Below are positions 341 through 61,299 of a stretch of 64,000 bases of DNA, piece after piece; positions within the stretch are counted from its first letter, which is position 1, and each line of letters opens with the position of its first letter. A program made the position numbers and the translations under genes. The notes under the pieces were generated by a model that did no database searches, was not told the DNA's origin, and worked only from the letters and a program-made list of their open reading frames with translations. This DNA comes from a phage: the sequence record PZ386970.1. One strand, 5' to 3'.

Positions 341-361
341 CAAAAGGGAGCCGAAGCTCCC
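341..361 (-). terminator. UUCG-tetraloop hairpin (GGGAGC-UUCG-GCUCCC) plus short U run, 3' of gene 52
   Basis: perfect 6-bp stem with UUCG loop on the minus-strand transcript, followed by UUUUG. Confidence 0.5.
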
Positions 362-437
362 TAATCATGTTTGTCCAACCAATACAACCAAATCACTAGT
401 GCAGCTATTGCACCGAGAAATCCTAAGGCTAGGGCAC

Positions 438-1763
438 TCAAAGTGCCTCCAAGTCTTTAGTGTACTCTGTCACAACATCAGTAGACTTCCAATACTCATT
501 TTCTTCTTTCTTAGCTTTAGCTTCTTCTGCTAGTTTACGTGCTTCGTCAGAAGTGATATGGAAGATGTTAAGACCTACCAGCTTATCGACATGTTCTTTA
601 TACATTTCTATTTGTGCTAGCTCTTCAGTCAAAGCTTTACGAGTCTTGCCTTGAATCACAATTTCGCCACTGATAACTTTTTTGATGAAGTGTGCCTTAG
701 CAAAAGCCAGTTTAAATGCTTTTTCAGATTCAAGAATTTTGTTGTCGATACGTTTCTGAACGTAAGTCTTACGGACTTCAACAAAATCTTTGATTAAGTC
801 TACTACATTATCGTAGACCGCTAATTTACCTTTTTCATTAATCACTGTGATGTTTTGTGAACGACGTTCGATGAGACTAAAATCTTTCATGATTTTTTCA
901 TGACGTAGCTCTTCATCGTCTGGAAGCGAGTACTCTTTACGGAACTTCACCTTAAACCCAAAGCCGTGTTCACCACAATCATCTTCCCATGAGATTAGAC
1001 CTTTGTCTTCCAACGGGTCAAGAACCTTACTCACATACGTTTCACGGTCGAATTTATATGGTATTTCAGTTATCTGCATTTGAGTACGAGATGTGAACTT
1101 ATATGTTCCGTGAATCTCATAACGCCCATCAACTTCATGCACTTCACCACGGAATTCTGGGAATTCAACTTTTGGCTTAGCGACATTTTTACCTTGAAGA
1201 GCTTGTAATACAGCCTTTTTGACAGATTTAAAACTATGAGGCAGAATATTTGTTGCGTAACCGGTTGCAATACCAGAGACACCATTCAAAAGAACTGTCG
1301 GAATAATAGGAAGATAGAATTTTGGTGGAACGTGTTCTTTATCTTCATGAGCTGGAGCATATTCAGTATCTTTATAGACATTATAGAAATTTTTACTTAC
1401 ACGAGCAAAAATATAACGAGATGCTGCAGCTTTTTGGACTGTTCGAGAACCAAAGTTGCCTTGACCATCTAATAGTGGATAGTTGTTATTCCATGTGTTA
1501 GCCATCAATGCACCTGCATCTTGTGCAGAAGATTCACCATGGTGATAACCTAAATCTGCAACACCGCCTGCAATTGACGCAAGTTTATGAAATTTTTCTT
1601 TATTACCACGAGCCAAATCTAATGCACGATGAACCACAAAACGTTGAACCGGCTTAAATCCATCAATCATATTTGGGATTGCACGGTTTTCAACGGTGTA
1701 CATCGCATATGCTAAGGCTTCGTTATCAATAATACTTTTTAGATTACGAGAATTCAATTGCAT
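438..1763 (-). CDS. 52: DNA topoisomerase II medium subunit (GyrA-like), gp52
   Basis: 441 aa; N-terminus MQLNSRNLKSIIDNEALAYAMYTVENRAIPNMIDGFKPVQR matches T4 gp52; synteny ndd-52. Confidence 0.9.
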   Translation of the reverse strand: MQLNSRNLKSIIDNEALAYAMYTVENRAIPNMIDGFKPVQRFVVHRALDLARGNKEKFHKLASIAGGVADLGYHHGESSAQDAGALMANTWNNNYPLLDGQGNFGSRTVQKAAASRYIFARVSKNFYNVYKDTEYAPAHEDKEHVPPKFYLPIIPTVLLNGVSGIATGYATNILPHSFKSVKKAVLQALQGKNVAKPKVEFPEFRGEVHEVDGRYEIHGTYKFTSRTQMQITEIPYKFDRETYVSKVLDPLEDKGLISWEDDCGEHGFGFKVKFRKEYSLPDDEELRHEKIMKDFSLIERRSQNITVINEKGKLAVYDNVVDLIKDFVEVRKTYVQKRIDNKILESEKAFKLAFAKAHFIKKVISGEIVIQGKTRKALTEELAQIEMYKEHVDKLVGLNIFHITSDEARKLAEEAKAKKEENEYWKSTDVVTEYTKDLEAL

Positions 1764-1767
1764 ATTT

Positions 1768-1908
1768 TCACCATATTAATGAACGAATATCCATTATAAC
1801 ATCTGAAATGAAAAGCACTACTTGGATTAGTCCAAACATCACACCGTAGTACAGAACCGTAAGCAACAACAAGAGCCCGAAGGCTCCTGCTAAGATTTTC
1901 TTAATCAT
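1768..1908 (-). CDS. small hydrophobic membrane protein (46 aa)
   Basis: manual translation MIKKILAGAFGLLLLLTVLYYGV...; start overlaps upstream stop (TAATG); occupies the T4 ac/stp slot. Confidence 0.3.
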   Translation of the reverse strand: MIKKILAGAFGLLLLLTVLYYGVMFGLIQVVLFISDVIMDIRSLIW

Positions 1909-2054
1909 TACTCGCCTTTTAGCACGTTAATAAGAGCTAAGACCGCTAAGGTACCTTGTGATACGGCCTGTTGAAATACTGTTGTTTCGCCTGTAACTAA
2001 AGTGTTAACGAATAAAAACGACCAACACAGCAATGCAATAATCCATGCTACCAT
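1908..2054 (-). CDS. small hydrophobic membrane protein (48 aa)
   Basis: manual translation MVAWIIALLCWSFLFVNTLVTGETTV...; below ORF-track size cut-off; ac/stp slot. Confidence 0.3.
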   Translation of the reverse strand: MVAWIIALLCWSFLFVNTLVTGETTVFQQAVSQGTLAVLALINVLKGE

Positions 2055-2070
2055 TTTAATTACCTCAAAA

Positions 2071-2100
2071 ATAAATTAAAGGCCCTATTAAGTTGGGCCT
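2071..2100 (-). terminator. hairpin (GGCCC...GGGCC) followed by U-rich tract, 3' of ndd
   Basis: inverted repeat with U-rich downstream sequence on minus strand. Confidence 0.35.
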
Positions 2101-2107
2101 GTATAAA

Positions 2108-2554
2108 TTAGTAACTCTGCAGAATGAATTTGAAATTATCAGCCAGAAGACGGTTCATTTCAGTGAGTGTTTGATATTCTGATGTATGGTTGCGAGTGAA
2201 TGCCAGAGCCAATTGACCTTTACCATAACCAGTGGTCAGTGGTTTCATGTTCTTAGCTGCAACAAAGATTACATCATATTCAATATTGTTAGTGCCCATG
2301 GTACGGGCTAGTTGCGAACGGCCTTGACGAATGTGAGAAAGAATTGCATCCAACCCTTGTTTAGAACGTTGACGTCCTACAAAGAATCGTGCTGCTACTT
2401 GTCGCCAATCAGATGAACCTTTAACGAAGAAGTAAAAACCTTCACGAGAACGAAACTCTTTAGAAACTTCAGAACCGTATTCGCCATTACGAACTACTGC
2501 AACAACTTCACCGCCAACTGCCAGAAGGTCTTTACGAGTTAAATATTTGGACAT
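2108..2554 (-). CDS. ndd: nucleoid disruption protein Ndd
   Basis: 148 aa; FYVGxQRSKQG...LSHIRQxRSQLART...[21 protein letters not shown]...EMNRxLADNFKF matches remembered T4 Ndd. Confidence 0.8.
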
Positions 2555-2630
2555 GCTAATTTCCTCAATTGATTAATGTTTTTGTAATCCATGAGAGCAT
2601 TATACTCTGCTCTCAAGAGTTTGTACAATT

Positions 2631-2831
2631 TTATTCGGCTATATCAGAACGTTCAAAAAGCTCTTCAACAGTTAAACATTCAGTGTCATCTTCAATAAAG
2701 AATCGAGTCCAACACGTTGGGGCGATACAGTTATGAGTTTGTCCGGCGATAGAAGCTACACGAATAAGCTGCTGACCATTATTCAGAACAAATTTTTCAC
2801 CAATTTCAACATCTTTAAAAAGCTTAGCCAT
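2631..2831 (-). CDS. hypothetical protein (66 aa)
   Basis: ATG ORF with family A promoter immediately upstream. Confidence 0.45.
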   Translation of the reverse strand: MAKLFKDVEIGEKFVLNNGQQLIRVASIAGQTHNCIAPTCWTRFFIEDDTECLTVEELFERSDIAE

Positions 2832-2847
2832 TTTGTATTCCTCGTGT

Positions 2848-2889
2848 TTTGATAGGTCTACTATACCATAATCCTACCGTGATGTAAAC
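2848..2889 (-). promoter_or_regulatory. early-type promoter (family A)
   Basis: GTTTACA, 18-nt spacer, TATAGT, then AGACCTATCAAAACA on minus strand. Confidence 0.55.
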
Positions 2890-3081
2890 AATTAAATTAC
2901 ATTAAAATACGTTAAAGCCAACCATGTTCCAGTGAACGAACATGCGATGTAAAAACCCGTATCACAAATTGTTCTTAGTACAATAAGAAGTGCATTTTTC
3001 ATAAGTACCTCAATGCAATTGAAAATATTATACAAATCATAGGGATACTAAGCAACCATATTCCGATCCACATTTTAGAAC

Positions 3082-3345
3082 TCATATCTCAACTTCCGCG
3101 AGTTCCATATATCCTTTGTTGATAACCTCTTTAAGGTCTTTAGAAAGAATAACATTAAAATGGTCGTTCATATGCCCGTTAACCAGACGAGTTATTTCGG
3201 CTTCAGATGACATATAAGGCACGTCTGAGTCCCAATGAGATAGACCTAAATGAGTATAAATCATCCCTTCGTCATCTGCGGTGTTGTACATTGAAACAAA
3301 CTCACCAGTCACTTTATGTTTTGCGTAGAAAAATTTAAATTTCAT
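3082..3345 (-). CDS. hypothetical protein (87 aa)
   Basis: ATG ORF with family A promoter upstream. Confidence 0.45.
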   Translation of the reverse strand: MKFKFFYAKHKVTGEFVSMYNTADDEGMIYTHLGLSHWDSDVPYMSSEAEITRLVNGHMNDHFNVILSKDLKEVINKGYMELAEVEI

Positions 3346-3361
3346 GGTGTTATCCTCTTTT

Positions 3362-3401
3362 AGATAGGACTACTATATCATAGACCTACTTAGGTGTAAA
3401 C
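3362..3401 (-). promoter_or_regulatory. early-type promoter (family A)
   Basis: GTTTACA, 18-nt spacer, TATAGT, then AGTCCTATCTAAAAG. Confidence 0.55.
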
Positions 3402-3413
3402 ACTTTTATGAAA

Positions 3414-3971
3414 TTAAAGATGAAGATACCACCCGTTGTAGTTGCTCTTGCGGACGATTTTCTTTAGGTCTTCATGGTCTCCCACAAACTTTATAGAATA
3501 AGAGAAGACGTCAGGTGAGGTTTCTTTGACATCTAATATAATAATGCAATCTGCGACTCGATGGTTCAAGAAGGGCCCTATATTGATTCCATTACCACCC
3601 GGATAATCACCACTGTATCCTGTGGTAACCGAAATCCATTTAGAATCTATCTGGTGTGTCTTGACTTCGACACGCAGCCCGCAGTATTTAGGATGAGCTA
3701 ACACGTCCCATGCATACGTGTACGGGTCTTCTACGTCTTCAATACCTTTATTAACATATCCGTCTAGCCAATTTGCTACTACATACTCGGCAAAGACTGC
3801 AACCTTACAACGTCGAACTACGTCTTCTTTTATTTGACCTGGATCTTGTTTCAACGAGTACCGAGCGGTATCAGCGATCTTCACCTTCATTTCGCTAGTC
3901 AAAAACTCATTCGACAGGATAAATGTCGGAAGATTCTTCAGTCTCAACAGCCCCAAGTTCGTCTTTACCAT
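3414..3971 (-). CDS. hypothetical protein in the T4 denB (endonuclease IV) slot, 185 aa if started at MVKTNLG
   Basis: position downstream of rIIB; GAGG RBS 5 nt before the internal ATG; length equals T4 DenB from memory; no motif verified. Confidence 0.35.
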   Translation of the reverse strand: MVKTNLGLLRLKNLPTFILSNEFLTSEMKVKIADTARYSLKQDPGQIKEDVVRRCKVAVFAEYVVANWLDGYVNKGIEDVEDPYTYAWDVLAHPKYCGLRVEVKTHQIDSKWISVTTGYSGDYPGGNGINIGPFLNHRVADCIIILDVKETSPDVFSYSIKFVGDHEDLKKIVRKSNYNGWYLHL

Positions 3972-4194
3972 AGATACCTCTGATGTGTAGTTCGCCAAAA
4001 TAAATGCGGTCACCTTCTTCAAGATATTCTGCATCTACAGGCGGAATTTCAATAACAACTTCGTCGCATTCTAACCAGCCGTAGTGTGCGTCGCCAGGAT
4101 GTTTTACCAATTTAGCGCAATAAACTGATTTACACTTATGATGACCACGAAGATTAGCAATTTTGGATTCTGATACGTCAAATGGATGAATCAT
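3907..4194 (-). CDS. hypothetical protein (95 aa from MIHPFDVSE), His/Cys-containing
   Basis: ORF begins just after the rIIB terminator with an AGGGG RBS; 3' end overlaps the next ORF by 65 nt. Confidence 0.3.
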   Translation of the reverse strand: MIHPFDVSESKIANLRGHHKCKSVYCAKLVKHPGDAHYGWLECDEVVIEIPPVDAEYLEEGDRIYFGELHIRGIYGKDELGAVETEESSDIYPVE

Positions 4195-4205
4195 AATTAC
4201 CCCTA

Positions 4206-4232
4206 AAGAAAAAAAAGGGGACCGAAGTCCCC
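4206..4232 (-). terminator. strong rho-independent terminator (GGGGAC-UUCG-GUCCCC plus U8) 3' of rIIB
   Basis: perfect 6-bp GC-rich stem, UUCG loop, followed by UUUUUUUUC on the minus strand. Confidence 0.7.
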
Positions 4233-4237
4233 AATTA

Positions 4238-5185
4238 TTATTCTGCAAATAATTCAGTAACGTCTGAAATTACTTCATAACGACAAGTACGCATCTTAGC
4301 ATCACCATAGTCAACTGGGATGGATACAACATCACGCGGATGAACTTTAACCTTAACAACTTTATCTGAGCTAGAACCAAAGTAACGAATATATGATTTA
4401 GCGCAAACATGTAGACCACGGGAGCAGGTTTGAGTATCATCATCGTTAACACGAGTACGAGGCATTGAAACAACTTTACCTGGTGAGTTATCAAATGTAC
4501 CACTATAACAGTCTAAATAGTCCTTACGAACTACTTTCCATGCATAGAAATGTCCATCTTCAGTGATTTCAATGTCATTTGCAACCAAGAAGTCGAATAA
4601 ACGTTGTACAGCTTTTTCGCTTGGGTTTTCTAACAGGTTTTCAAGGAACGGCAGATAGAATTTAAAGTCTTCACCTTTTTCCATGGAATCAATAATACGA
4701 TTAACCAGTCCTGAACGAATTTCTATACCTTGATAAAATAAACTACCACCTTCAATAGTAACATTACCGTCAACAAACTTACTAATAGCTTTCTTGATGT
4801 TAATAAGTTCGACAGCTTTACTAAGGTTTCCTGCGACCAGATTAGCTTTAATTTCTTCAAAATTTGCATGACTTGATGGGGTCGCATTGTATGCTACGCG
4901 TCCTTCAATAATTGAAATAAATTTAGATGACGCGTTCCATACGATTTCAGGACGATGTCCGCCGATAATAGGTTCATCATTTTCTGGAACTTCTTCGATT
5001 ACATAAGAGGCATCGTTTGCTTCAGGGACAACGCCTTCTGCTTTAAAATTCTTAACAATCTTACGAAGAGTATCTGTTGAAATGTCGAAGTAATCGGCAA
5101 TTTCTTTACGAGTCCATTTGCCTGATTCAACCAGGCCGTAAGCTTCTAACTGTTCTTCTTGGGACAAGCATTTGATATTGTACAT
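4238..5185 (-). CDS. rIIB: rIIB protein
   Basis: 315 aa, N-terminus MYNIKCL...; immediately downstream of rIIA as in T4. Confidence 0.8.
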   Translation of the reverse strand: MYNIKCLSQEEQLEAYGLVESGKWTRKEIADYFDISTDTLRKIVKNFKAEGVVPEANDASYVIEEVPENDEPIIGGHRPEIVWNASSKFISIIEGRVAYNATPSSHANFEEIKANLVAGNLSKAVELINIKKAISKFVDGNVTIEGGSLFYQGIEIRSGLVNRIIDSMEKGEDFKFYLPFLENLLENPSEKAVQRLFDFLVANDIEITEDGHFYAWKVVRKDYLDCYSGTFDNSPGKVVSMPRTRVNDDDTQTCSRGLHVCAKSYIRYFGSSSDKVVKVKVHPRDVVSIPVDYGDAKMRTCRYEVISDVTELFAE

Positions 5186-5194
5186 AATGTTTCC

Positions 5195-7408
5195 TTATTT
5201 GGCTGCTTCCACAGCCTTCATGAATTTAACGATTTGAGCGACCTGTTCTTTGGAAAGAGTACCACGTCGTCCCATGTATTCTGACACAATATGATAATTG
5301 GTTTCGAATTCAATAACCATTTTATCATCATTATCGTAAGCATTATCTTTAAGCTTATCGAAAATTTTAGCACACAATTCTAACTTCCTGTTCAGGTCTG
5401 TATTAGTAGCACCTGCGAATCGATTCCATCCCCAACGATTATTTACTGTTGAGAGTTTTGCAAAGTCTTTACTGATTTCTTTGTTCTTAGAGCTAAAATA
5501 CTTACTAAGGAAATTAAGCTCTTCATTACGAGTAATATGATTCAAATAAGGCTGTGCTCTACGACTTGGTGATACATACTCATCATAATCTACTTTATCG
5601 ATTAGCATAATATAGTCATTAATTGATTTTTCAAACAAACATTCTACTTCACCGAGTTTACGAACTTTCTTAGCAATCTGTGGGCGGACTACAGTGAACT
5701 CTTTAATACCTGACAAATCGGCAATACGGGTCAAGAAATTAGAGTCATAGTTCAACCAACCTTTATCTGCGTCAAGACATTCAGCATTAGAACGATTACG
5801 AACTATAGCATAACCTTGGATTTCATCAGCTTCACTCGCTGGAATAAAGAGATCTTCTGATACCCAAACATCGTTTTCATTCTTAAAGAACCGATGAGCA
5901 CTTGGGGATTTAGGACGAGGCTCATTAGTCCGTTTCCTGACTTCAATCCATGGCTTAACGATTTGTAAAAGCTCTGAAGTCTTGTACATGTTAATGTTGT
6001 CGCCATCAAAGATAACTTTAAGGCGTTCCAGAAGTTTCATTGCATCTTCGTCTGTAGGGTCAACGAATAGTACGCTTTTACCAAAACCACGTGGAACTTT
6101 ACCTGATAATTTAACCTCGTCTTTAGACATTTCAATTGAATTAAGAGCTCGCATTAATGGAACGCGTCCCTTAACGTCGTCAATAACAATTTCAACGTTT
6201 TTAATGTTAATGCCGATCAGGCTGTTAATTGAAATGGTTGATGATGAGCTACCACTTTCACGAATACGACGAAGACGAGGAGATTCAACGATATCGTATA
6301 CGACGCCAAGATTACACCACTCAGGCCCCATTTTAAAACGTTTGTACAACTCAGAATAAGTTAGTTGTTCTTTAGAGTATTTCAGTGATTCAATATTAGA
6401 CCCAGCCTTTTCCATGTATTTACGAGCGGTATAGCCAAGAGAATCAATTTCGCGGAACACATGACGTGGGTATTTACAATCAATCCATTTCTTAGAATCT
6501 TCAGCGAACAATTTAGCATCGATTTCTGCAACGCGTTTATGGATATTTGCTACTGTACGTTTATCAAATGACAATGCTTCACGAGACGGGGCTACATCTA
6601 GTTCACCCATAGGGAATTTAATATAAGCTGTAGTGCATCGCGTCATCATCCATGTTTGTTCTTTAATAACACTTCCGATTGGATATACAATGCCGCCATA
6701 AACAGCCATGATATTACCACGTTCACCCCATGGAGCTTCCTTGGCTAAATAAACATCATCGAATTCCGGGAAGTATTTGATATCTTTAACACCACGAACT
6801 TCTGCAATATCGCCGAGAGGACGCATAACATAAGCAATTTCGGATGCAAACTTTTCAAAATCTTCCGGGTTAACCGGTACAACTACTTCTACACCCGTAC
6901 GGTCATCAGGACCCATCTTATCTACAAAGGTCGGCTTAATCTGTGGACCACTGTCATCTTGATAAATTACATAACCACGAACTTCACCATTATGATAAGA
7001 CGTAAGGTTAAACGTATCAGTATATGCTAATGGAGCTTTAGAGCCGAGTCCGAATCCACCAATGAAATCGTTACTCGATGTTTTAGTTGAAGCAAAATAT
7101 GAGTTATAAATTCCTGGCTCTTCGTCATTACCACGAATAGTGAAATCACTCATACCCGGACCAAAGTCTCGAACTACAAAACGTGGGTCTAAACGACCTG
7201 GAGCCTGAACAATAAACTTATCAGTGCAACCATTAAGAATTTGCCCATCAATACAGTTTGTGATTAATTCACGTACACAAGCCAATTCTTTGTTTGTATA
7301 AAGGTCATTAGACAAAATCTTATAAACTTTGCTATTGCCTTGAATAGTGAATGCTGTGCTCTTACCGCCTGAACCAATAATCGTTTCTTTAGCCGTTTCG
7401 ATAATCAT
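5195..7408 (-). CDS. rIIA: rIIA protein
   Basis: 737 aa, size and position between 39 and rIIB as in T4. Confidence 0.8.
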   Translation of the reverse strand: MIIETAKETIIGSGGKSTAFTIQGNSKVYKILSNDLYTNKELACVRELITNCIDGQILNGCTDKFIVQAPGRLDPRFVVRDFGPGMSDFTIRGNDEEPGIYNSYFASTKTSSNDFIGGFGLGSKAPLAYTDTFNLTSYHNGEVRGYVIYQDDSGPQIKPTFVDKMGPDDRTGVEVVVPVNPEDFEKFASEIAYVMRPLGDIAEVRGVKDIKYFPEFDDVYLAKEAPWGERGNIMAVYGGIVYPIGSVIKEQTWMMTRCTTAYIKFPMGELDVAPSREALSFDKRTVANIHKRVAEIDAKLFAEDSKKWIDCKYPRHVFREIDSLGYTARKYMEKAGSNIESLKYSKEQLTYSELYKRFKMGPEWCNLGVVYDIVESPRLRRIRESGSSSSTISINSLIGINIKNVEIVIDDVKGRVPLMRALNSIEMSKDEVKLSGKVPRGFGKSVLFVDPTDEDAMKLLERLKVIFDGDNINMYKTSELLQIVKPWIEVRKRTNEPRPKSPSAHRFFKNENDVWVSEDLFIPASEADEIQGYAIVRNRSNAECLDADKGWLNYDSNFLTRIADLSGIKEFTVVRPQIAKKVRKLGEVECLFEKSINDYIMLIDKVDYDEYVSPSRRAQPYLNHITRNEELNFLSKYFSSKNKEISKDFAKLSTVNNRWGWNRFAGATNTDLNRKLELCAKIFDKLKDNAYDNDDKMVIEFETNYHIVSEYMGRRGTLSKEQVAQIVKFMKAVEAAK

Positions 7409-7420
7409 GTTTTTCTCTCA

Positions 7421-7621
7421 TCACAAGTTACGTTTAAAAATTTCTGCTACTTCAAGAAGTTCTTCTTTAGTAGCTGTGTCGGTTTGTATTTTATATCGAA
7501 TTTCCTTAAAGCGTTCTTTAAAGGCTTCAGCTGATTCGATATCAAAAAATCTTTGGATAAGCCGGAATTCCCGGAGCACTGCTTTATCAAAAAGTTCCAA
7601 GTCCACGTTATATGTTCTCAT
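7421..7621 (-). CDS. hypothetical protein (66 aa), rIIA.1 position
   Basis: ATG ORF MRTYNVDL... with RBS; synteny. Confidence 0.5.
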   Translation of the reverse strand: MRTYNVDLELFDKAVLREFRLIQRFFDIESAEAFKERFKEIRYKIQTDTATKEELLEVAEIFKRNL

Positions 7622-7645
7622 AATATTCTCTTCAGTAGATTCCTA

Positions 7646-7698
7646 GGGCACTATTACTAAAGACCATATAATCTATCATCTTATGTGTAATAGTGCCT
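7646..7698 (-). other. perfect 11-bp inverted repeat (GGCACTATTAC / GTAATAGTGCC) with 29-nt AT-rich loop
   Basis: seen directly in sequence, between the glycosyltransferase stop and the next start codon. Confidence 0.6.
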
Positions 7699-7713
7699 CA
7701 GGCGATTCAGGAT

Positions 7714-8814
7714 TTACGCTGTGAAGATTTTATCCCACATCGCAACAACTGCATCTCGATTATACTTCTTCCATACTGCTTCAGCACGTTTAACTCGAGC
7801 TTCGTATGTGTCAGTGAATTCTAATACAGCTTTTGTGTAAAGCGCAACTACTTCTTTCTTAGGAGTAGAAGAATCAATTTCTACACGCACAGTATCTGGG
7901 TCATATTCGAATGTCGCATGAGGATAATCCTTAAAAACTAACTGGATTACAGGGACACCTTTAGAGATGGCTTCAATAGAACTATTCTCTACCGTACCTG
8001 TGTCAGGACACGTATTAATAAGTGCTTTAGCTGTTTTAAGACGTTCCATAATTTCACTGTGTGGAGCATCAATAATAACAGGATATTTAGCTGGTGGTGC
8101 CCATTTACTAGGACAGTATCCTGCACCATTTTCGCCTAGTGCTTTAATCGCTTCAAGAGCAACATCAGTACGACGCATTTTAGTGTCATAACGTTGTGCA
8201 CTAATAATCAGATCAGTCGCCGGAAGAACTTCAGGTTTCTCATTCAAACAAATAACCGGATAATCTTCGGCTTCAAACAACGGATTTGCTCGCCAATAAT
8301 CATAATCAATTTTGTCAGTCAGTCCCGAAGTCATATAACAATATTTACGTTCAAATTCACGGAAGGCTTTAGTAGGAGCATAACTCTTACCACCATTCTT
8401 ATGAATTTGAATAGTCTGGTCCCAAATTTGAACAATGCCACGAGATACCGGCTCAAATGGTGTTGCCATAAAATTCTTATGAACTTTAGAGAGACCTGCG
8501 TCTTTAATTGCCTGAACGGTTAGTTTGGTCGGTTCCATTGTAACAACGAAATCGTACTCATTAATGCCGGCTAGTTCAACAATCTTACGAGCCATAGTAT
8601 AACTCATACCTAGACTGAATTTAGTCAGATGACCAACAGGATGATGATTAACCTTCCAATCACCAAATGTGTCATTATCAAAGCCGATATAATCAATATC
8701 AGCACCGATGGACACAAGATATTTCAACACATTTAAATGTACTGCTTCAAGACCACCTTGTACACGTTCTGGGTTAAATGGGACTGCGCGAGATGGGATA
8801 AACATAACTTTCAT
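7714..8814 (-). CDS. GT-B fold glycosyltransferase (GT4-like), candidate DNA sugar transferase
   Basis: 366 aa; N-terminus MKVMFIPSRAVPFNPERVQGGLEAV is the GT-B donor-scaffold signature; C-terminal E..SIEAISKGVPVI motif; lies between rIIA and 39. Confidence 0.7.
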   Translation of the reverse strand: MKVMFIPSRAVPFNPERVQGGLEAVHLNVLKYLVSIGADIDYIGFDNDTFGDWKVNHHPVGHLTKFSLGMSYTMARKIVELAGINEYDFVVTMEPTKLTVQAIKDAGLSKVHKNFMATPFEPVSRGIVQIWDQTIQIHKNGGKSYAPTKAFREFERKYCYMTSGLTDKIDYDYWRANPLFEAEDYPVICLNEKPEVLPATDLIISAQRYDTKMRRTDVALEAIKALGENGAGYCPSKWAPPAKYPVIIDAPHSEIMERLKTAKALINTCPDTGTVENSSIEAISKGVPVIQLVFKDYPHATFEYDPDTVRVEIDSSTPKKEVVALYTKAVLEFTDTYEARVKRAEAVWKKYNRDAVVAMWDKIFTA

Positions 8815-8821
8815 AATTAAG

Positions 8822-8857
8822 CCTTATTAAAATTAAAATGAAGCTCCCGAAGGAGCT
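8822..8857 (-). terminator. UUCG-tetraloop hairpin (AGCUCC-UUCG-GGAGCU) plus U-rich tail, overlapping the HNH gene stop
   Basis: stem-loop followed by UCAUUUUAAUUUU on minus strand. Confidence 0.45.
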
Positions 8858-9654
8858 TAGGACATCCAACACATTTTATAACCTTTGCAGGTTCTGTTAG
8901 GATTATTTAATGCTTTCAATATATTAGAAGACCCTATACCTAAATACTCCCTTAATTCATAAAGATAGTTAAAATCAATAGTTTCACCTGTTTTTACACT
9001 TGTGATTCTTATAGGCCTTCTTTCATATTTAGATTTATACAACTCTCTAGTCTTAGCTTTAGTTTCTTCTGACCTAGGAGTGTATGGTTTAAATCCTTTT
9101 GTTTTAAATGTTTCCATTCTTGATTTAGTTATTTTATCCTGGTGTTCTTTTGTTTTTACAGGTGCTTTTCGCCCATTCTCCCAAGATAACTTGTTGGCCT
9201 GTATTATTTTATCTATTGCTTCTTGCGTATGAGTTTTACCATAAAATGGATTTAATTCGCCTATACGTTGTGAAGCAATATGTGACATTAATTCTCTTGT
9301 TGCTTTAGTATGTTTTTTACCTTTAAATGGGTTGCCATTTTTAGCAATCCATTCTTTCATAAATCTAGAGTGCTCTTTAGAGAATTCTTGTTTAAGCCAA
9401 TCATAATCTCTAGAATTTCTAGCTCCCATGTAAAAAGCTCTAATAGCCATAAGCGTAGAACGGTTCTTATGAATTTTATAAAGCAATAAATGGGCGATAA
9501 AATGCTCTCTAGGGGTCATTTTAACTAGATTTGATTTAGCATTACTCCCGCCCATAGATTTAGGCAAAATATGGTGAGTTTCAGTATAATTAGGAATAGT
9601 GCTGCGGTTTTTAGCCGCAGCGATAAGTTTATCATAAATTTTACGATAATTCAT
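8857..9654 (-). CDS. HNH homing endonuclease with NUMOD-like repeats (free-standing, Mob-like)
   Basis: HHILPKSMGGSNAKSNLVKMTPREHFIAH HNH motif; repeated NPFYGKxHT motifs; ATG overlaps gene 39 stop (TAATG); track start is an upstream TTG. Confidence 0.75.
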   Translation of the reverse strand: MNYRKIYDKLIAAAKNRSTIPNYTETHHILPKSMGGSNAKSNLVKMTPREHFIAHLLLYKIHKNRSTLMAIRAFYMGARNSRDYDWLKQEFSKEHSRFMKEWIAKNGNPFKGKKHTKATRELMSHIASQRIGELNPFYGKTHTQEAIDKIIQANKLSWENGRKAPVKTKEHQDKITKSRMETFKTKGFKPYTPRSEETKAKTRELYKSKYERRPIRITSVKTGETIDFNYLYELREYLGIGSSNILKALNNPNRTCKGYKMCWMS

Positions 9655-11474
9655 TATCCTAGCATCCAATCTTTACGGAGTTCAGGGTCGTTACCCATGA
9701 GCATTTCAAATAGTTCTTTCCAATTTTCAGGAAGTTTAACTACGTCGTACACAGGGTTTTGAATCATTTCTTTATATTCATCCCGCTGAAGTGAGCCCAA
9801 TCCCTTGATGTATCGAATACTATGCTTAGGCAGTGTATCTTTAGCTTCTTCATACTCAGCTACAGTATAAAACCATTTTTGAGATTTGCCAATTTGTGCA
9901 ATAATTACAGGTGTTTTAACAAAGCGAATACGTCCTTGTTCAAACAATTCAGGCCAATTACTAAAGAAAGCAAGCAAAGCCGGATAGATACTTCCAAGAC
10001 CGTCATGATCGGCATCGGTCATAATTGCAATATTACGATAGTTCGTATTCTCTGCCTTTTCACCAAGAATAAGACCTGTGATAGCACAGATATCAAAGAG
10101 CTCTTTGTTCTTCATCATATCAGCATATGACATACCCCAGCTATTCATCACCTTACCACGTAACGGGAATCCACCATGTAGTTCACGGTCACGAACATCA
10201 ATGAGATAACCAATTGCCGAATCACCTTCTGTTAAGAACAATGTCGTATCTGCATCTTTACCACATTGGTTAGCTTTAATATGCTTATGAACCTTAGCTT
10301 TAGTTGCCTTTTTAGCTGCTTTAGTTTCTGCAGCCTTTTCTGCTGCCAATTTACGAGCTAATGCTGCTTCAACAATAGGCATAATCAAGGCTTCGTTTTT
10401 AAGAAGCGCCTGAGCAATTTTCTTAGCATCTAATTGGATATGATTACGAATATCACCATACGTTGACGTTAAACGTTCTTTAGTCTGAGAATCAAAACGC
10501 ATGTTGCTCATGTCTCTAATAAACATCAACATTGTGAGACATTCTTTAACACGAGCTTTAGTGACTTCAATACCCTTATATTTCTTTTTAATACCCGGCA
10601 AAAGATGTTCGCAGATATCATCCATTACACATTCAACATGATGACCGCCATTTTTAGTATGGATGTTATTAACATAAGTTAAATGACGGAAGCCATCTGG
10701 TGATGTTGTGAATGCTATAGAGACTTTATCATTTTCTTGAATGATGTTATCTTCACCAAATTGTTTAGCAAATCGTTTAAAATTACCATCAACCTTTTTA
10801 CCATTAAATGTGAACTTGATATCAGGATAAACGACTGCCAATGTTTGAAGTCGGTCTAAAGTAATATCTAAATAAATTTGAGATAAATTATGCTCTTCAA
10901 ATGAAGAGAAATCAGGAGTGAAGATTACTTTAGTGCCTTTACCTTTAGATTTCTTAGAAGACCATGATTTGTTTTCCATTCCATTTGAACAGTTAACAGT
11001 GATTTCATTTTCACCATCTGACGTGATGCCTGTAAACAACGTAGAGAAGATATTAGTTAAACTACTCCCGACGCCGTTCATACCACCAGTCTTGCGTTCA
11101 GAATCATCACCAAAGTTACCACCAGCTTTTGGAATAGTCCAGGCTGCTACAGGCCCAGGAATTTGTTCACCTGTTTGGTCGGTAACTAAACCTTGAGGAA
11201 TACCACGTCCGTTATCTTCAACCGAAACTTGATTATTTTTAATTTGCACATCAATTTTATTTGCAAACTTAAATGATGTACGAATAGCTTCATCAACTGA
11301 GTTGTCAATAATCTCATCGATTAATTTAACCAGGCCAGGAACATATTCAACTTGTTGATATTTACCAAACAAAAAACGCTCATGTGCTTCTTTGGCCGAA
11401 GAACCAATATACATACCACTACGTTTCTTAATATGTTCTACATCTGACAATACCTTAATTTCATTTTTAATCAT
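9654..11474 (-). CDS. 39: DNA topoisomerase II large subunit (GyrB-like ATPase + Toprim), unsplit gp39
   Basis: 606 aa; MIKNEIKVLSDVEHIKKRSGMYIGSS N-terminus; Toprim LFLTEGDSA...DADHDG at C-terminus in the same ORF. Confidence 0.9.
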   Translation of the reverse strand: MIKNEIKVLSDVEHIKKRSGMYIGSSAKEAHERFLFGKYQQVEYVPGLVKLIDEIIDNSVDEAIRTSFKFANKIDVQIKNNQVSVEDNGRGIPQGLVTDQTGEQIPGPVAAWTIPKAGGNFGDDSERKTGGMNGVGSSLTNIFSTLFTGITSDGENEITVNCSNGMENKSWSSKKSKGKGTKVIFTPDFSSFEEHNLSQIYLDITLDRLQTLAVVYPDIKFTFNGKKVDGNFKRFAKQFGEDNIIQENDKVSIAFTTSPDGFRHLTYVNNIHTKNGGHHVECVMDDICEHLLPGIKKKYKGIEVTKARVKECLTMLMFIRDMSNMRFDSQTKERLTSTYGDIRNHIQLDAKKIAQALLKNEALIMPIVEAALARKLAAEKAAETKAAKKATKAKVHKHIKANQCGKDADTTLFLTEGDSAIGYLIDVRDRELHGGFPLRGKVMNSWGMSYADMMKNKELFDICAITGLILGEKAENTNYRNIAIMTDADHDGLGSIYPALLAFFSNWPELFEQGRIRFVKTPVIIAQIGKSQKWFYTVAEYEEAKDTLPKHSIRYIKGLGSLQRDEYKEMIQNPVYDVVKLPENWKELFEMLMGNDPELRKDWMLG

Positions 11475-11496
11475 GTTGTCTCCTCGTTATGAAGGT

Positions 11497-11523
11497 ATTC
11501 TATCATCCGAAATCTAAAGCAAA
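11497..11523 (-). promoter_or_regulatory. MotA-type middle promoter upstream of gene 39 (TTGCTTTA box, 12 nt, TAGAAT)
   Basis: minus strand tttTTGCTTTAgatttcggatgaTAGAAT; MotA box consensus (a/t)(a/t)TGCTT(t/c)A. Confidence 0.45.
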
Positions 11524-11538
11524 AAGGGCCGAAGCCCT
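11519..11538 (-). terminator. UUCG-tetraloop hairpin (AGGGC-UUCG-GCCCU) plus U5
   Basis: stem-loop followed by UUUUUG directly after the stop of the upstream gene. Confidence 0.5.
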
Positions 11539-11963
11539 TATTTAAATTTAATTTTCTGAAGTGCATCAATTGCAGCCAAACGCCCTTGTTCACTTTTAAC
11601 TGTAATGACCACATCGCCGGATACGATCACCGAACCATCAACAAATTCTATAGAGCCTTTTTTGAAATCGACAGCTGTATCTGGTTCCGGAACTTCTTCA
11701 AAGAATTTAAATTCTGCACCATAAAGCAGAATATCACCTTGCATACTATGAATAGTTCGGCCATAATCGCCTACGGCTTCTACAGCAATAACCGAAACGC
11801 CGTAACCAATCATCTCTTCCACAATAAAATCTTTGGACAATAAAGTAGTATGCAGATTAGTATTAAGACGTTTACCAGTTGTATTAAGAATTCTCAAGAA
11901 ATTATCTTCTTGACCTTTGATAATACGATATTTCTTACCAACTTCAAAACCTTTAAAAGCCAT
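11538..11963 (-). CDS. hypothetical protein (141 aa)
   Basis: ATG ORF MAFKGFEV...; no family recognised. Confidence 0.5.
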   Translation of the reverse strand: MAFKGFEVGKKYRIIKGQEDNFLRILNTTGKRLNTNLHTTLLSKDFIVEEMIGYGVSVIAVEAVGDYGRTIHSMQGDILLYGAEFKFFEEVPEPDTAVDFKKGSIEFVDGSVIVSGDVVITVKSEQGRLAAIDALQKIKFK

Positions 11964-11965
11964 AA

Positions 11966-12145
11966 TTAACCCTTCTTAAGTAAGTCGTAAAAACCGCCGT
12001 TCACATGTTTAGGAGCAGAAACCCGACGAGTAGACAGACGATGACATTCAGGGCAAACATCATTTTCTCGTTCAGAAATCCTTTTAATTTTTTCATATTC
12101 ATGACCACAATCTTCAGATTGACATTTATAGTCGTATAACGGCAT
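11966..12145 (-). CDS. zinc-ribbon protein (59 aa), FmdB-like
   Basis: manual translation [18 protein letters not shown]...CPECH; two CxxC pairs; TAATG-coupled to upstream gene. Confidence 0.45.
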   Translation of the reverse strand: MPLYDYKCQSEDCGHEYEKIKRISERENDVCPECHRLSTRRVSAPKHVNGGFYDLLKKG

Positions 12146-20894: not shown

Positions 20895-20934
20895 AAGTAA
20901 GAATATCTTAACATAGTTTTTAGTGGTTGTAAAC
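20895..20934 (-). promoter_or_regulatory. early-type promoter (GTTTACA, 18 nt, TAAGAT)
   Basis: same architecture as promoter at 49900-49940. Confidence 0.45.
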
Positions 20935-20942: not shown

Positions 20943-20968
20943 CGAAAAAAGGAATCCTTCGGGATTCC
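20943..20968 (-). terminator. rho-independent terminator 3' of soc (GGAAUCC-CGAA-GGAUUCC plus U6)
   Basis: 7-bp stem followed by UUUUUUCGUUU on minus strand. Confidence 0.6.
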
Positions 20969-20977
20969 TTAAATTAT

Positions 20978-24775: not shown

Positions 24776-24818
24776 TTTGATAGGACTACTATACTATAGT
24801 CCATCTATAATGTAAACA
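24776..24818 (-). promoter_or_regulatory. early-type promoter (family A)
   Basis: GTTTACA, 18 nt, TATAGT then AGTCCTATCAAATC. Confidence 0.5.
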
Positions 24819-26291: not shown

Positions 26292-26336
26292 GTAGTTGAT
26301 AGGTCTATAGTAACATGATTTAGGAGTGTTGTAAAC
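26292..26336 (-). promoter_or_regulatory. early-type promoter (family A)
   Basis: GTTTACA, 18 nt, TACTAT then AGACCTATCAACTAC. Confidence 0.55.
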
Positions 26337-26359
26337 CCCGAAAGGAGACCGAAGTCTCC
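26337..26359 (-). terminator. UUCG-tetraloop hairpin (GGAGAC-UUCG-GUCUCC) 3' of gene 41, weak U tail
   Basis: stem-loop seen; U run interrupted. Confidence 0.4.
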
Positions 26360-26365
26360 TTTCTA

Positions 26366-38724: not shown

Positions 38725-38730
38725 TTAATT

Positions 38731-38751
38731 TCCTTTAGACGAGTTATTGTC
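38731..38751 (-). promoter_or_regulatory. gene 43 translational operator-like element: short hairpin with loop AAUAACUC next to the SD
   Basis: minus strand GACAAUAACUCGUC then AAGGAAAUUAA-AUG; loop resembles remembered T4 gene 43 operator loop. Confidence 0.4.
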
Positions 38752-38771
38752 TTTTGTTTGTTGATGAACTT

Positions 38772-38800
38772 ATTATACTCCAAATGGGACCGAAGTCCCA
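38772..38800 (-). promoter_or_regulatory. promoter for gene 43 (TATAAT -10 of the family B repeat; -35 overlaps terminator hairpin)
   Basis: TATACTCCAA motif shared with family B promoters. Confidence 0.4.
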
Positions 38801-38805
38801 TTGCT
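38785..38805 (-). terminator. UUCG-tetraloop hairpin (UGGGAC-UUCG-GUCCCA) 3' of regA
   Basis: stem-loop followed by UUUGG. Confidence 0.45.
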
Positions 38806-39174
38806 TTAATTACCAATTGTATATTTTGCTTTCAAAGTCCAGTCGTCTTTCTGTTTAAAAGAGATAACACGGAAGTTATTAGTCAGGCTAAATAGATCTT
38901 CACGAGCAGAGTCTTCAATAACAATCAATCCCCAGTCTTCAAGCAACTGAGCAATCGAATCACGTCGCTGATAGTCTTCACCGTCAATATCAACCTGGCG
39001 TCCATCCATACGCAGCATTTCTTTAAAGTGGACAATATAGTACTTACCTTGCTTTTGGAGGATATGACAAGACTGGTAAAGGACTTTATCTTTGTTATTA
39101 GCGATGCCCATACGGGTCAAAGTCTCTTTGACTTTCAGAAAATCTTCAGGGTTCTTCAATTTAATTTCAATCAT
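38806..39174 (-). CDS. regA: translational repressor RegA
   Basis: MIEIKLKNPEDFLKVKETLTRMGIANNKDKVLYQSCHILQK near-identical to T4 RegA; 122 aa. Confidence 0.85.
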   Translation of the reverse strand: MIEIKLKNPEDFLKVKETLTRMGIANNKDKVLYQSCHILQKQGKYYIVHFKEMLRMDGRQVDIDGEDYQRRDSIAQLLEDWGLIVIEDSAREDLFSLTNNFRVISFKQKDDWTLKAKYTIGN

Positions 39175-40704: not shown

Positions 40705-40779
40705 GTAATTTTCCTCATTATCATTAAACTGGAGGATTTCTCCTCCATAATCGTACTACATTAAACGTAAAGCTTTGAC

Positions 40780-42136: not shown

Positions 42137-42178
42137 TTAATTTGATGTGGTCATTATAACCACATCGTGTTAAAGCGT

Positions 42179-46185: not shown

Positions 46186-46220
46186 GAAATTACTATATCA
46201 TAGTTTATACTGTTTGTAAA
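46186..46220 (-). promoter_or_regulatory. early-type promoter (GTTTACA, 18 nt, TATAGT)
   Basis: drives the GIY-YIG gene. Confidence 0.5.
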
Positions 46221-46227: not shown

Positions 46228-46254
46228 AACGAGAAAAGGAACTCCGAAGAGTTC
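46228..46254 (-). terminator. UUCG-tetraloop terminator (GGAACUC-UUCG-GAGUUCC plus U-rich tail)
   Basis: 7-bp stem followed by UUUUCUCGUUU. Confidence 0.55.
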
Positions 46255-46428
46255 CTATCCACATAGTACACCGTACAGAGGCTCATTTGAACTTTTAAAT
46301 CGAATGGGCTTGTATGTAATAGTTCCTTCGGCAGAAGCTTTATCATAAGACTCTTTAAAACGTCTCATTCTTTCTGCTTTGCCTTTACGGATTTTATCGA
46401 AATTTTCAGAAGTCGGGATGTTCGTCAT
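46255..46428 (-). CDS. hypothetical small basic protein (about 57 aa)
   Basis: manual translation MTNIPTSENFDKIRKGKAERMRRF...; coordinates approximate to 1 nt. Confidence 0.25.
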   Translation of the reverse strand: MTNIPTSENFDKIRKGKAERMRRFKESYDKASAEGTITYKPIRFKSSNEPLYGVLCG

Positions 46429-48931: not shown

Positions 48932-48994
48932 GATATTTTCCTCATTTTAAGACGATAGGAAGACATGTTATTATCTTCCTATCGTTGTACATTA

Positions 48995-55245: not shown

Positions 55246-55246
55246 A

Positions 55247-58852: not shown

Positions 58853-58914
58853 AACTATTTCCTCAGATTGAATTGGAACTCAAAACCATTATAACCCGTC
58901 CTTGGGTAAAGCGT

Positions 58915-59442: not shown

Positions 59443-59454
59443 GTTTTACCTCCA

Positions 59455-59496
59455 GTAGTTGATAGGTCTATAATAACATAACCATAGACCTTGTAA
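59455..59496 (-). promoter_or_regulatory. early-type promoter (family A)
   Basis: GTTTACA, 17 nt, TATTAT then AGACCTATCAACTAC. Confidence 0.55.
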
Positions 59497-59500
59497 ACAA

Positions 59501-59788: not shown

Positions 59789-59926
59789 AACATATCCTCT
59801 TTGATTTGTACATCATTATTTTTAAATATTTCTATGCCCTCAGTAGGTTCCTGGTGTCCTTCTTTGAGGTAAGCTATATGATTATTCATCTTTATGGCTT
59901 TTGTTACCTCAGAACTTCCTATAAGC

Positions 59927-60907
59927 TTATTTCAGTAAAGTTACTTCAGAGATTTCCTCCCAACCATCTTTATCAGTTGAAATAAAATCTGCTACATAAA
60001 GAGCCGTACGTAATGATACATTGCGAAGACGAGATACGTTAGCCTTCATCCAGGACAATGCTTTATACGTTTCTGCATCCGTCAGACCACGTTTCTGCAT
60101 CATGTCAGTAGATAATATTACATCTTCAACTCGAACCATAATCTCTTCATTAGAGTGTACTCCAAGGTCGAGATACACTGAACGAGATACTAAAGCTTGA
60201 AGGTGCGGAGCAAGTTTCGAACCACGTTCTAACTCTTTATCGATATCAACGTTTGTAATGAAAACGATAGTACCTTCAAACTCAAATTCTTTATCAATAC
60301 CCTTATCATCGAGATAAGATGACGCAGTACTCCAACAAACTTTGCGTTTATCGCCAGTATCCAATGCTGCTTTAAGAAGGTTCAGGATGTCCATATCCGA
60401 GAATACGTCAACGTCGTCGATTAAGAGAACGCTGTCTGCATCACGGTTGAGCCAAAGTTGTTCGTAAAGGCCAATACCAGAGATTTTGCCATTAATGCTT
60501 TTGTATTTGATGAAACCGTTATCATTAGCATTATTAAGTGCTTTATCCAGAGAATACGTCTTACCAATACCAGCTGCACCTGAAATAATGAGTGAACGAA
60601 TTTTGCCATCGATAATGCCATTCGTCATCATGTTCATTACTTTAAAGCGTTTGTTGATACGAGTTTTCATATCTTCAGTGCTTTCAACAACTGCAACTGG
60701 TGATGTCTCAACTCCTTCCATTACGATGTCTGATTTGAAGACCCATACTCCACGTTCAGAACCATCAATCATAACGAAAATTTTACCATCACCTAAGTGG
60801 GAACATTCAGGATTAAGCTTTGCCGGGAACCATGTCTTTGTGGCAACATAAGAACCAGAGATTTCGTTATTACGATAGATACCTTTTTTGATTTGAACGT
60901 TGAACAT
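59927..60907 (-). CDS. P-loop NTPase (AAA-like), about 326 aa from MFNVQIKKG
   Basis: Walker A SGAAGIGKT, Walker B LLIDDVD; start trimmed to the ATG preceded by GGAGAA RBS. Confidence 0.55.
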   Translation of the reverse strand: MFNVQIKKGIYRNNEISGSYVATKTWFPAKLNPECSHLGDGKIFVMIDGSERGVWVFKSDIVMEGVETSPVAVVESTEDMKTRINKRFKVMNMMTNGIIDGKIRSLIISGAAGIGKTYSLDKALNNANDNGFIKYKSINGKISGIGLYEQLWLNRDADSVLLIDDVDVFSDMDILNLLKAALDTGDKRKVCWSTASSYLDDKGIDKEFEFEGTIVFITNVDIDKELERGSKLAPHLQALVSRSVYLDLGVHSNEEIMVRVEDVILSTDMMQKRGLTDAETYKALSWMKANVSRLRNVSLRTALYVADFISTDKDGWEEISEVTLLK

Positions 60908-60934
60908 TTTATTCTCCAATTTACTCATTTCGTT

Positions 60935-60974
60935 TCGATAGGTCTATAATAACATGTTTAAAGCAAAAGTAAAC
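60935..60974 (-). promoter_or_regulatory. early-type promoter (family A)
   Basis: GTTTAC, 17 nt, TATTAT then AGACCTATCGAAAC. Confidence 0.55.
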
Positions 60975-60976
60975 AA

Positions 60977-61195
60977 TTATTTGCGACGAGATTTTTTGGT
61001 AAGAGGTTGAAAGAACACTGCTTTACCTGCCGGGGTTAAGGTGACTCGTAATGCGTTACCGATTCCTAAGGATGCTTTAACTAGTCCTTTAGCTTTCAGT
61101 TCACCGAATGCTTGACGTTGGTCTGCATCACGAGTGTTAACCATAAGACCTTTATCACCAGCTTCACGAATCATTTCTAACATTTTGGTTTTCAT
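60977..61195 (-). CDS. hypothetical small protein (72 aa from MKTKMLEMIREAG)
   Basis: track N-terminus IIDLSKQEEN is promoter read-through; trimmed. Confidence 0.45.
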   Translation of the reverse strand: MKTKMLEMIREAGDKGLMVNTRDADQRQAFGELKAKGLVKASLGIGNALRVTLTPAGKAVFFQPLTKKSRRK

Positions 61196-61210
61196 TTTGT
61201 TCTCCTCTTG

Positions 61211-61251
61211 TTTTGATAGGTCTATAATAACATATCCTAAAAGCATGTACA
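61211..61251 (-). promoter_or_regulatory. early-type promoter (family A, -35 variant GTGTACA)
   Basis: TATTAT then AGACCTATCAAAACAAGAGGAG. Confidence 0.5.
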
Positions 61252-61276
61252 CTACTTTTTAAAAATATTTTGACCC

Positions 61277-61299
61277 CCTAAAGGGACCCGAAGGTCCCC
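61277..61299 (-). terminator. UUCG-tetraloop hairpin (GGGACC-UUCG-GGUCCC)
   Basis: stem-loop directly 3' of the secreted-protein gene; weak U tail. Confidence 0.4.

Follow-up and report, generated by a model that had tools for sequence, protein, structure and literature searches.

Short hairpins capped by a UUCG tetraloop recur at gene ends in the 64-kb stretch of phage DNA in record PZ386970.1 (hereafter the window), and they raise the question of what is being selected at these sites: a terminator, another kind of RNA structure, a DNA-level palindrome, or nothing at all. The window has 37% G+C, every substantial open reading frame (ORF) lies on its minus strand, and it is the prereplicative (early and middle) gene region of a Mosigvirus of the Tevenvirinae. 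We assign the hairpins, with a probability of roughly 85%, to the C(UUCG)G hairpins typical of T-even prereplicative mRNAs, in which short G+C-rich stems stand at or near stop codons. In T4, the UUCG motif has been in the textbooks since 1988, and research on the UUCG tetraloop grew out of it. The phenomenon is thus already known, with T4 C(UUCG)G hairpins published in that year and the sites themselves annotated in sister genomes.

UUCG hairpins are concentrated on the mRNA strand at gene ends

In a systematic scan of minus-strand RNA, we observe ten UUCG hairpins, each having a C-G closing pair and a stem no shorter than 6 bp, plus one hairpin with a CGAA loop (Table 1, A to K). All ten carry C(UUCG)G on a short Watson-Crick stem, while K reads C-CGAA-G. 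This count compares with 0.78 ± 0.86 in 300 dinucleotide shuffles, and a stricter rule (at least 5 bp, at least three G-C pairs) again gives 10, with 0.08 ± 0.28 in the shuffles. Under the stricter rule, T4 has 13 transcribed-strand UUCG hairpins (shuffle mean 0.17) and JS98 has 5 (shuffle mean 0.05); the Krischvirus RB49 has 0. UUCG is also the commonest tetraloop among stable transcribed-strand hairpins of the window (10 versus at most 3 for any other loop). The CTTCGG hexamer by itself is enriched about 2-fold (13 versus 7.4 ± 2.6).

The opposite strand holds one such hairpin in the window and none in T4, JS98 or RB49, the exception being the soc hairpin of the window. The UUCG loop is therefore on the mRNA strand in 28/29 hairpins of the window, T4 and JS98, and because a DNA palindrome is indifferent to the orientation of its loop, this bias argues that selection acts on the RNA. 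The position of the hairpins is similarly restricted: non-coding sequence, roughly 7% of the window, holds 8/10 of those with UUCG, and by our own tally across the window, T4 and JS98, a stop codon is found at a distance of −4 to +7 nt for 22/28. Folding with 20-nt flanks places all 11 hairpins in both the minimum free energy and the centroid structures, and their predicted free energies range from −8.8 to −15.9 kcal/mol.

A sequence-only reading of the window had described at least ten intergenic UUCG hairpins with G+C-rich stems of 5-7 bp, plus a CGAA-loop variant. Inspection of each coordinate finds the hairpins at all nine sites that it listed, eight with UUCG and one with CGAA. Ten UUCG hairpins do exist, but the count is completed by B and G, which were absent from its list and sit inside coding sequence rather than between genes. 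The stem length holds for the G+C-rich core, and the full stems reach 6-11 bp with A-U and G-U pairs included.

Table 1. Hairpins, associated promoters and inserted ORFs in the window (d, hairpin-plus-tail discriminant with an approximate zero point)
Feature	Position	Strand	Sequence or type	Context	Tail	d
Hairpin A	345-362	(-)	AGGGAGC-UUCG-GCUCCCU	75 nt past gene 52 stop	UUUUGUGCAUUUUU	+16
Hairpin B	1867-1892	(-)	11-bp stem, UUCG loop	first codons of gp52.1; 15 nt past ac stop	no U-tract	-6.5
Hairpin C	4217-4232	(-)	GGGGAC-UUCG-GUCCCC	5 nt past rIIB stop	U8	+53
Hairpin D	8841-8858	(-)	AAGCUCC-UUCG-GGAGCUU	overlaps stop (-2 nt) of homing-endonuclease-like ORF after gene 39	CAUUUUAAUUUU, interrupted U run	
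Hairpin E	11524-11539	(-)	AAGGGC-UUCG-GCCCUU	overlaps stop (-2 nt) of 39.1-position ORF	U-tail merging into MotA box	+11
Hairpin F	26340-26363	(-)	10-bp stem, UUCG loop	2 nt past gene 41 stop	GGGGUUUAC, no U-tract	-28
Hairpin G	28098-28117	(-)	UCCCCUUC-UUCG-GAAGGGGA	gene 40 codons ~15-21; 34 nt past uvsX stop	no U-tract	
Hairpin H	38783-38802	(-)	AAUGGGAC-UUCG-GUCCCAUU	3 nt past regA stop	UGGAGUAU, no U-tract	
Hairpin I	46237-46256	(-)	AGGAACUC-UUCG-GAGUUCCU	overlaps a-gt.2 stop (-2 nt)	UUUUCUCGUUUCU	+3.8
Hairpin J	61282-61299	(-)	GGGGACC-UUCG-GGUCCCU	4 nt past stop of 88-aa ORF 3' of nrdC.11	UUUAGGGGGUC / UUAGGGGG, not a U-tract	-6.8
Hairpin K	20949-20970	(-)	AAGGAAUCC-CGAA-GGAUUCCUU	7 nt past soc stop	U6	+17
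Promoter behind A	-35 TTTACA 319-314, -10 TATTAT ending 292	(-)	early type			
Putative middle promoter behind E	MotA box TGCTTTA 11515-11521, TAGAAT 11497-11502	(-)	MotA box, 12-nt spacer			
Promoter behind K	~20905-20933	(-)	early			
Promoter behind F	~26307-26335	(-)	early	GTTTAC 3 nt past hairpin		
-10 box behind H	38772-38777	(-)		UGGAGTATAAT directly adjoining hairpin		
Promoter behind I	~46192-46220	(-)	early	drives inserted HNH endonuclease-like ORF		
Homing-endonuclease-like ORF, 270 aa	8857-9669	(-)	NUMOD3 motif, PHROG homing-endonuclease families			
HNH/homing endonuclease-like ORF, 275 aa	45350-46177	(-)	PHROG family match E=6e-75			

Hairpin sites are shared with T4 and JS98

When compared to T4, UUCG hairpins occur on the same strand and at the same junctions after regA, soc, 39.1, a-gt.2, nrdC.11 and rIIB (where the T4 hairpin is weak) and inside gene 40, such that at least seven window sites coincide with those of T4. 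In JS98, they follow 39.1, soc, 41, nrdC.11 and an ORF between regA and 43. The ortholog of hairpin E is at 5381-5398 in T4 and 4895-4910 in JS98, and that of hairpin I is at 38715-38734 in T4 with a different stem. Other sites are found in T4 only (the 45/44 junction, after a-gt, denB.1 and rI.-1, in stp, and the gene 60 bypass hairpin) or in the window and not in T4 (after 41, after 52, in 52.1, and after the fused gene 39). Like the T4 hairpins of Tuerk et al. (1988), those of the window share the loop, the C-G closing pair, the strand and a mostly intercistronic position; they differ in their stems, in which the changes are compensated, and in the inverted loop of one site. As related in PMC8948821, Tuerk et al. 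found CUUCGG hairpins to be common in phage intergenic regions, especially those of T4, and to stop reverse transcriptase; the same text credits a 5' CUUCGG hairpin with stabilizing T4 gene 32 mRNA. This gene 32 leader hairpin and the gene 60 bypass hairpin (T4 2834-2857) have the cUUCGg cap and a short stem in common with the window hairpins, but the former acts in 5'-end mRNA stabilization and the latter in ribosome take-off, unlike the window hairpins. Gene 60 is unsplit in the window phage, and gene 32 is outside the window. We found no T4 Term-seq study or 3'-end atlas in the literature searched.

The regA site offers the largest comparison, with 13 distinct sequences from IMG/VR contigs, T4 and JS98. 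All of them have a hairpin 2-11 nt past the stop, just upstream of a G(G/T)(A/G)GTATAAT box, on stems that differ from one another. Seven of the eight stem pairs are altered on both sides, and the loops include UUCG, UACG, UCCG, UUAC, GAAA and CGUG. In distant T4-like contigs, GGGGC-loop-GCCCC is found 1 nt past the gene 41 stop and directly before the next ribosome-binding site, with no U-tract, and UUCG, UACG and GAAA swap on this same stem. Within gene 40, which we compared across 10 loci from a gp40 protein query plus T4 and JS98, T4 and the window share the peptide ESPSSEGE and differ by a synonymous compensatory pair (CCU/GAA versus CCC/GAG). Other phages also have a hairpin here, with a UCAG loop or, in the case of JS98, with a stem and peptide that are unrelated. 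At the 45/44 junction, the window (40730-40747, minus strand) reads UGGAGGA-GAAA-UCCUCCA where T4 (31899-31914) has UUCG, a natural UNCG-to-GNRA swap at an orthologous site. The interchange of loops on the same or similar stems argues for selection on stability rather than for a loop-specific ligand, and together these comparisons show that selection maintains hairpin stability at a set position and favors neither a given stem nor a loop-specific ligand.

The hairpin after soc carries an inverted loop

Hairpin K is the one site where the loop of the mRNA strand reads CGAA. All 21 Soc-encoding IMG/VR loci, as well as ATK48, T4 and JS98, have a UUCG loop in the mRNA behind soc. Across 150 nt, RB69 and the window differ only in the loop, TTCG versus CGAA, which is an exact 4-nt inversion on a perfect 9-bp palindrome. 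An exact-pattern scan of IMG/VR for the inverted soc hairpin returned none. BLAST against GenBank phages found it in two top records, Ec2-ASingh and Ec3-ASingh, of which the sequence was checked in Ec3-ASingh (PQ561403, an unverified partial record); this reads CGAA in a flank somewhat different from that of the window. From this distribution, hairpin K is a derived loop inversion, either recurrent or segregating, and it looks like a palindrome-mediated loop flip. Going from UUCG to CGAA costs little predicted stability (−12.2 versus −11.3 kcal/mol), with no change in the U6 tail, such that the hairpin probably still terminates.

Terminator features divide the set, and promoters follow several hairpins

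Some of these hairpins look like intrinsic terminators and others do not, as the sequence-only reading had proposed. At least five U residues among the first 8 nt downstream are found at C, E, K and I, and at A only if its tail is taken to include the basal A-U pair. The U-rich tail is missing at B, F, G, H and J, which have at most three U among the first 8 tail bases, and at D, where the run is interrupted. Only A, C, E, I and K have a positive discriminant d, the zero point of which is approximate given that the formula of d'Aubenton-Carafa et al. (1990) was combined with modern energy parameters. Hairpin C, with its eight U's, appears to be the clearest intrinsic terminator among the 11; its T4 counterpart is the weak hairpin at the rIIB junction. 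A terminator scan of positions 1-12000 puts the UUCG hairpins on top, with three minus-strand sites among the top matches. Hairpin F, with a strongly negative d, has a folding z of −4.0. Directly behind nrdC.11, T4 and JS98 have UUCG hairpins with U-tracts at the position to be compared with J. The ATK48 and PhAPEC2 records already annotate hairpin sites as terminators, several by ARNold; in ATK48, the site of A is labeled "Rho independent terminator" and that of B carries an ARNold annotation. Compared to E. coli intrinsic terminators, which are read by the same host RNA polymerase, the window hairpins share the G+C-rich hairpin and U-tract at C, E, K, I and A. They differ in their very short stems (5-7 G+C-rich bp) that rely on the tetraloop bonus, in that 6/11 have no U-tract, and in that most are joined to a restart promoter and are no more than 7 nt away from a stop codon.

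The earlier observation that several hairpins adjoin a downstream promoter holds for A, F, I, K, E, H and J. An early −35 box, GTTTACA, with a properly spaced −10 box begins at +24 (A), +3 (F), +15 (I) and +14 (K). The MotA box TGCTTTA stands at +2 behind E, where with TAGAAT it forms what reads as the middle promoter of gene 39, and GGAGTATAAT stands at +1 behind H. Behind J, a promoter-like GTGTACA...TATTAT is found at about +30. These T4-specific boxes were read straight from the sequence; a generic sigma-70 promoter scan, which gave 37 in the window versus 39.7 in shuffles and hence no enrichment, was set aside. In T4, middle expression combines the extension of early transcripts with MotA promoters (PMC2988021).

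Two further arrangements were noted on the minus strand. At hairpins F (26333-26363) and J (61272-61299), the 3' arm is followed by UUUC/UUUA and then by GGGG(G), which could pair with the 3' arm to form a weaker alternative hairpin. A second family of hairpins (2592-2615, 24783-24802, 42144-42166, 48952-48985, 59464-59491 and 63907-63938) has an early-promoter −10 box inside the loop or the 3' arm, such as AGGTCTAT...TATTATAGACCT, in the layout of the PeSL composite promoter and stem-loop motifs. Such hairpins would sequester downstream sequence only in transcripts begun upstream.

Hairpin H lies near the gene 43 operator and hairpin G in gene 40

Hairpin H is found between regA and gene 43, and the gp43 translational operator is a hairpin with a UAAC-containing loop that reaches from upstream into the gene 43 ribosome-binding site (PMC3014915). 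We considered H as this operator and rejected it: its loop is UUCG, it ends 58 nt before the AUG, and the autogenous operator with the published UAAC loop motif is a separate hairpin, AGAC-AAUAACUC-GUCU at 38737-38752 on the minus strand, which stands between H and the gene 43 AUG, about 13 nt before the latter. On the plus strand at about 38803-38830, the conserved AAGCAA upstream of H reads TTGCTTTA, a perfect MotA-box consensus, with TATATT 11 nt on. This could be an antisense middle promoter, or a coincidence.

Hairpin G falls in a region for which RNA ends have been mapped in T4. In Kim et al. (2025, PMC12152347), the uvsX stop and the gene 40 start both fall in the 358 nt that precede T4 gene 41, and an in vivo RNA 3' end is located directly behind a stem-loop in that region. 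That paper also reports more RNA ends at this site in rho(nusD) hosts, and that GoF(D25Y) restores extension into gene 41 post-transcriptionally, via a longer RNA half-life. In our fold of the T4 uvsX/gene 40 region, the UUCG hairpin dominates among local G+C-rich stem-loops, and it is thus very probably the stem-loop marked there, with G as its ortholog.

Several hairpins coincide with mosaic boundaries

Identity to ATK48 and PhAPEC2 breaks exactly at D, I and J, and just past the −35 box behind F. The 270-aa NUMOD3 ORF lies between gene 39 and hairpin D; it shares the last 12 nt and the stop of gene 39 and is absent from ATK48. The 275-aa HNH ORF lies between hairpin I and gene 47 and has its own early promoter. 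The hairpin I/gene 47 locus instead has a MotA-box promoter in PhAPEC2 and a-gt+mobB in T4, a module that is flanked in T4 by two junctions of UUCG hairpin and MotA box.

Composite terminator-promoter motifs, known as PeSL and PmSL, have been proposed as shuffling points (Arbiol et al. 2010, PMC2839356; Comeau et al. 2014, PMC4122927). Like the window junctions, these combine a stem-loop with an early (TTTACW-N17-TAYWAT) or MotA-box promoter in each intergenic unit and adjoin indels and variable ORFs, as is the case at D, I, J and F. Unlike the UUCG hairpins, which are upstream of the −35 box, the PeSL stem-loop usually covers the −10 box or occupies the space separating it from the −35 box. 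RB49, the PeSL type phage, has no UUCG hairpins. As a gap of 3-24 nt separates the end of the UUCG hairpins from the −35 box downstream, we rejected the idea that they are themselves PeSL stem-loops.

Genomic context of the window

The closest relatives of the window are Mosigvirus coliphages (RB69-like T-even phages such as PhAPEC2 and ATK48), with about 97-98% identity. Along the direction of transcription, the gene order is tk/rI, nrdC.x, 49, nrdD/G, 55, 47, 46, 45-44-62-regA-43, followed by uvsX-40-41, 61, 56, soc, modA/B, dda, dexA and motB, and finally 39, rIIA, rIIB, denB, ndd, ac and 52. Rfam at gathering thresholds matched no family in the window, and a tRNA scan of the window found none. 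A 71-aa ORF with a good ribosome-binding site (37-252, minus strand) lies 3' of the promoter behind hairpin A, within a 437-nt stretch between gene 52 and motA that carries no annotation in ATK48.

Discussion

The roughly 100-fold over-representation of the hairpins, their restriction to one strand, their placement at cistron ends, their folding and the covariation of their stems are all directly observed, and they are what we would expect of the C(UUCG)G hairpins of T-even prereplicative mRNAs. In a working model, the nascent hairpin would fold fast and stably despite the A+T-rich genome, as the exceptionally stable cUUCGg cap would let a G+C-rich core of 5-7 bp hold. Sites with a U-tract (A, C, E, I and K) would act as leaky intrinsic terminators of host RNA polymerase. 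Those without one (B, D, F, G, H and J) would mainly define and protect RNA 3' ends against 3'->5' exonucleases, or alternatively pause or attenuate transcription. Both classes would partition long early and middle transcripts into overlapping units, in keeping with the two routes to T4 middle expression named above, and most are joined to a restart promoter, whether early (GTTTACA...TATAAT), MotA-box middle or a −10 box. These compact terminator-promoter junctions also coincide with the boundaries of mosaic and homing-endonuclease insertions.

Several considerations weigh against this reading. The canonical U-tract is missing at 6/11 hairpins, such that "terminator" is not the whole story, and the zero point of the terminator discriminant is approximate. 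At the regA site, 94% of cells are paired versus 26-64% when partners are slid, but the alignment rows were picked for a detected hairpin, which inflates the paired fraction. We infer the roles of single hairpins in the window phage from sequence, and likewise infer the identity of the stem-loop of PMC12152347 with the T4 UUCG hairpin.

The simplest competing explanation is that all of the hairpins are Rho-independent terminators ending each transcription unit. A G+C-rich hairpin right behind a stop codon at each site, the U-rich tails at C, E, K, I and A, and the ARNold labels in GenBank would all fit, but this explanation is unlikely to extend to the whole set. The tails of B, F, G, H and J are poor in U and that of D is interrupted, G and B are inside ORFs that must be transcribed, and orthologs switch between U-rich and non-U tails (F versus JS98, J versus T4). 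The distant phages with GGGGC-loop-GCCCC keep it without a U-tract before the next ribosome-binding site. In addition, Li et al. (PMC4824070) report that an intrinsic terminator a few bp past a translated gene is almost completely repressed, which would apply to terminators this near a translated stop. A purely compositional origin in an A+T-rich genome has in its favor that the CTTCGG hexamer alone is merely about 2-fold enriched. This is set against the roughly 100-fold excess of the hairpin-forming fraction over shuffles, the strand bias, the intergenic position, the synteny and the covariation, and the probability of an artifact is negligible.

The two other explanations differ in the molecule that is recognized. 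If the motifs acted in DNA, as cruciforms or as recombination hot spots akin to PeSL shuffling motifs, then the mosaic breakpoints at D, I, J and F, the endonuclease-like ORFs beside D and I, the T4 a-gt+mobB module between its two hairpin-MotA junctions, the published shuffling proposals (PMC2839356, PMC4122927) and the loop inversion at K, itself a palindrome event in DNA, would follow naturally. A cruciform, however, has no preference for loop orientation, whereas UUCG is on the mRNA strand in 28/29 hairpins, and the loops come from the RNA-specific stable classes UNCG and GNRA. Viable recombinants survive in intergenic regions in any case. The stems include four G-U pairs versus one of the A-C type, which leans the same way but comprises too few events to decide. 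Overall, we regard action at the DNA level as improbable, though the hairpins may have a secondary part in recombination. Recognition of the loop by a specific phage or host RNA-binding protein (such as RegA, gp43, RegB/S1 or a GoF-type LSm-like protein) would account for the invariant loop and C-G closing pair in 10/10 window cases. GoF(D25Y) also stabilizes a reporter RNA with the T4 gene 41 upstream region including the stem-loop (PMC12152347). Yet orthologous sites use UACG, UCCG, GAAA, CGUG and UCAG loops, and the soc hairpin tolerates full loop inversion in at least two lineages. The gp43 operator is the different hairpin with the AAUAACUC loop, and RegA sites are described as unstructured (PMC3014915), making such a ligand highly improbable.

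The dependence of T4 delayed-early RNA on translation is a classical observation. Beyond the C(UUCG)G assignment, the hairpins that abut stop codons could be ribosome-gated attenuators linking read-through to translation, a speculative proposal that we consider unlikely. With nearly all of the hairpins starting −4 to +7 nt from a stop, their 5' arm would be inside the footprint of the terminating ribosome. A ribosome trailing the polymerase closely would block folding and allow read-through into a delayed-early or middle cistron, while in an untranslated or uncoupled transcript the hairpin would form and lead to termination or to trimming as far as the hairpin. The 3' ends so produced might be targets of the GoF-type LSm-like proteins of the phage. 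If true, ribosome gating would provide a cis-acting, factor-free explanation for the translation dependence of T4 delayed-early RNA.

On our preferred assignment to the T-even C(UUCG)G hairpins, the window contains a genuine, functionally selected class of RNA motif that is recoverable from raw sequence, a result mainly of quality-control value. The catalogue separates terminator-type from non-terminator-type sites in a Mosigvirus. The difference between UUCG in RB69 and CGAA in the window is a natural loop-inversion allele that could serve as an isogenic test of the tetraloop. Finally, the per-site comparison provides a clean natural demonstration that selection acts on the stability and position of the hairpin, and not on the sequence of its stem or loop.

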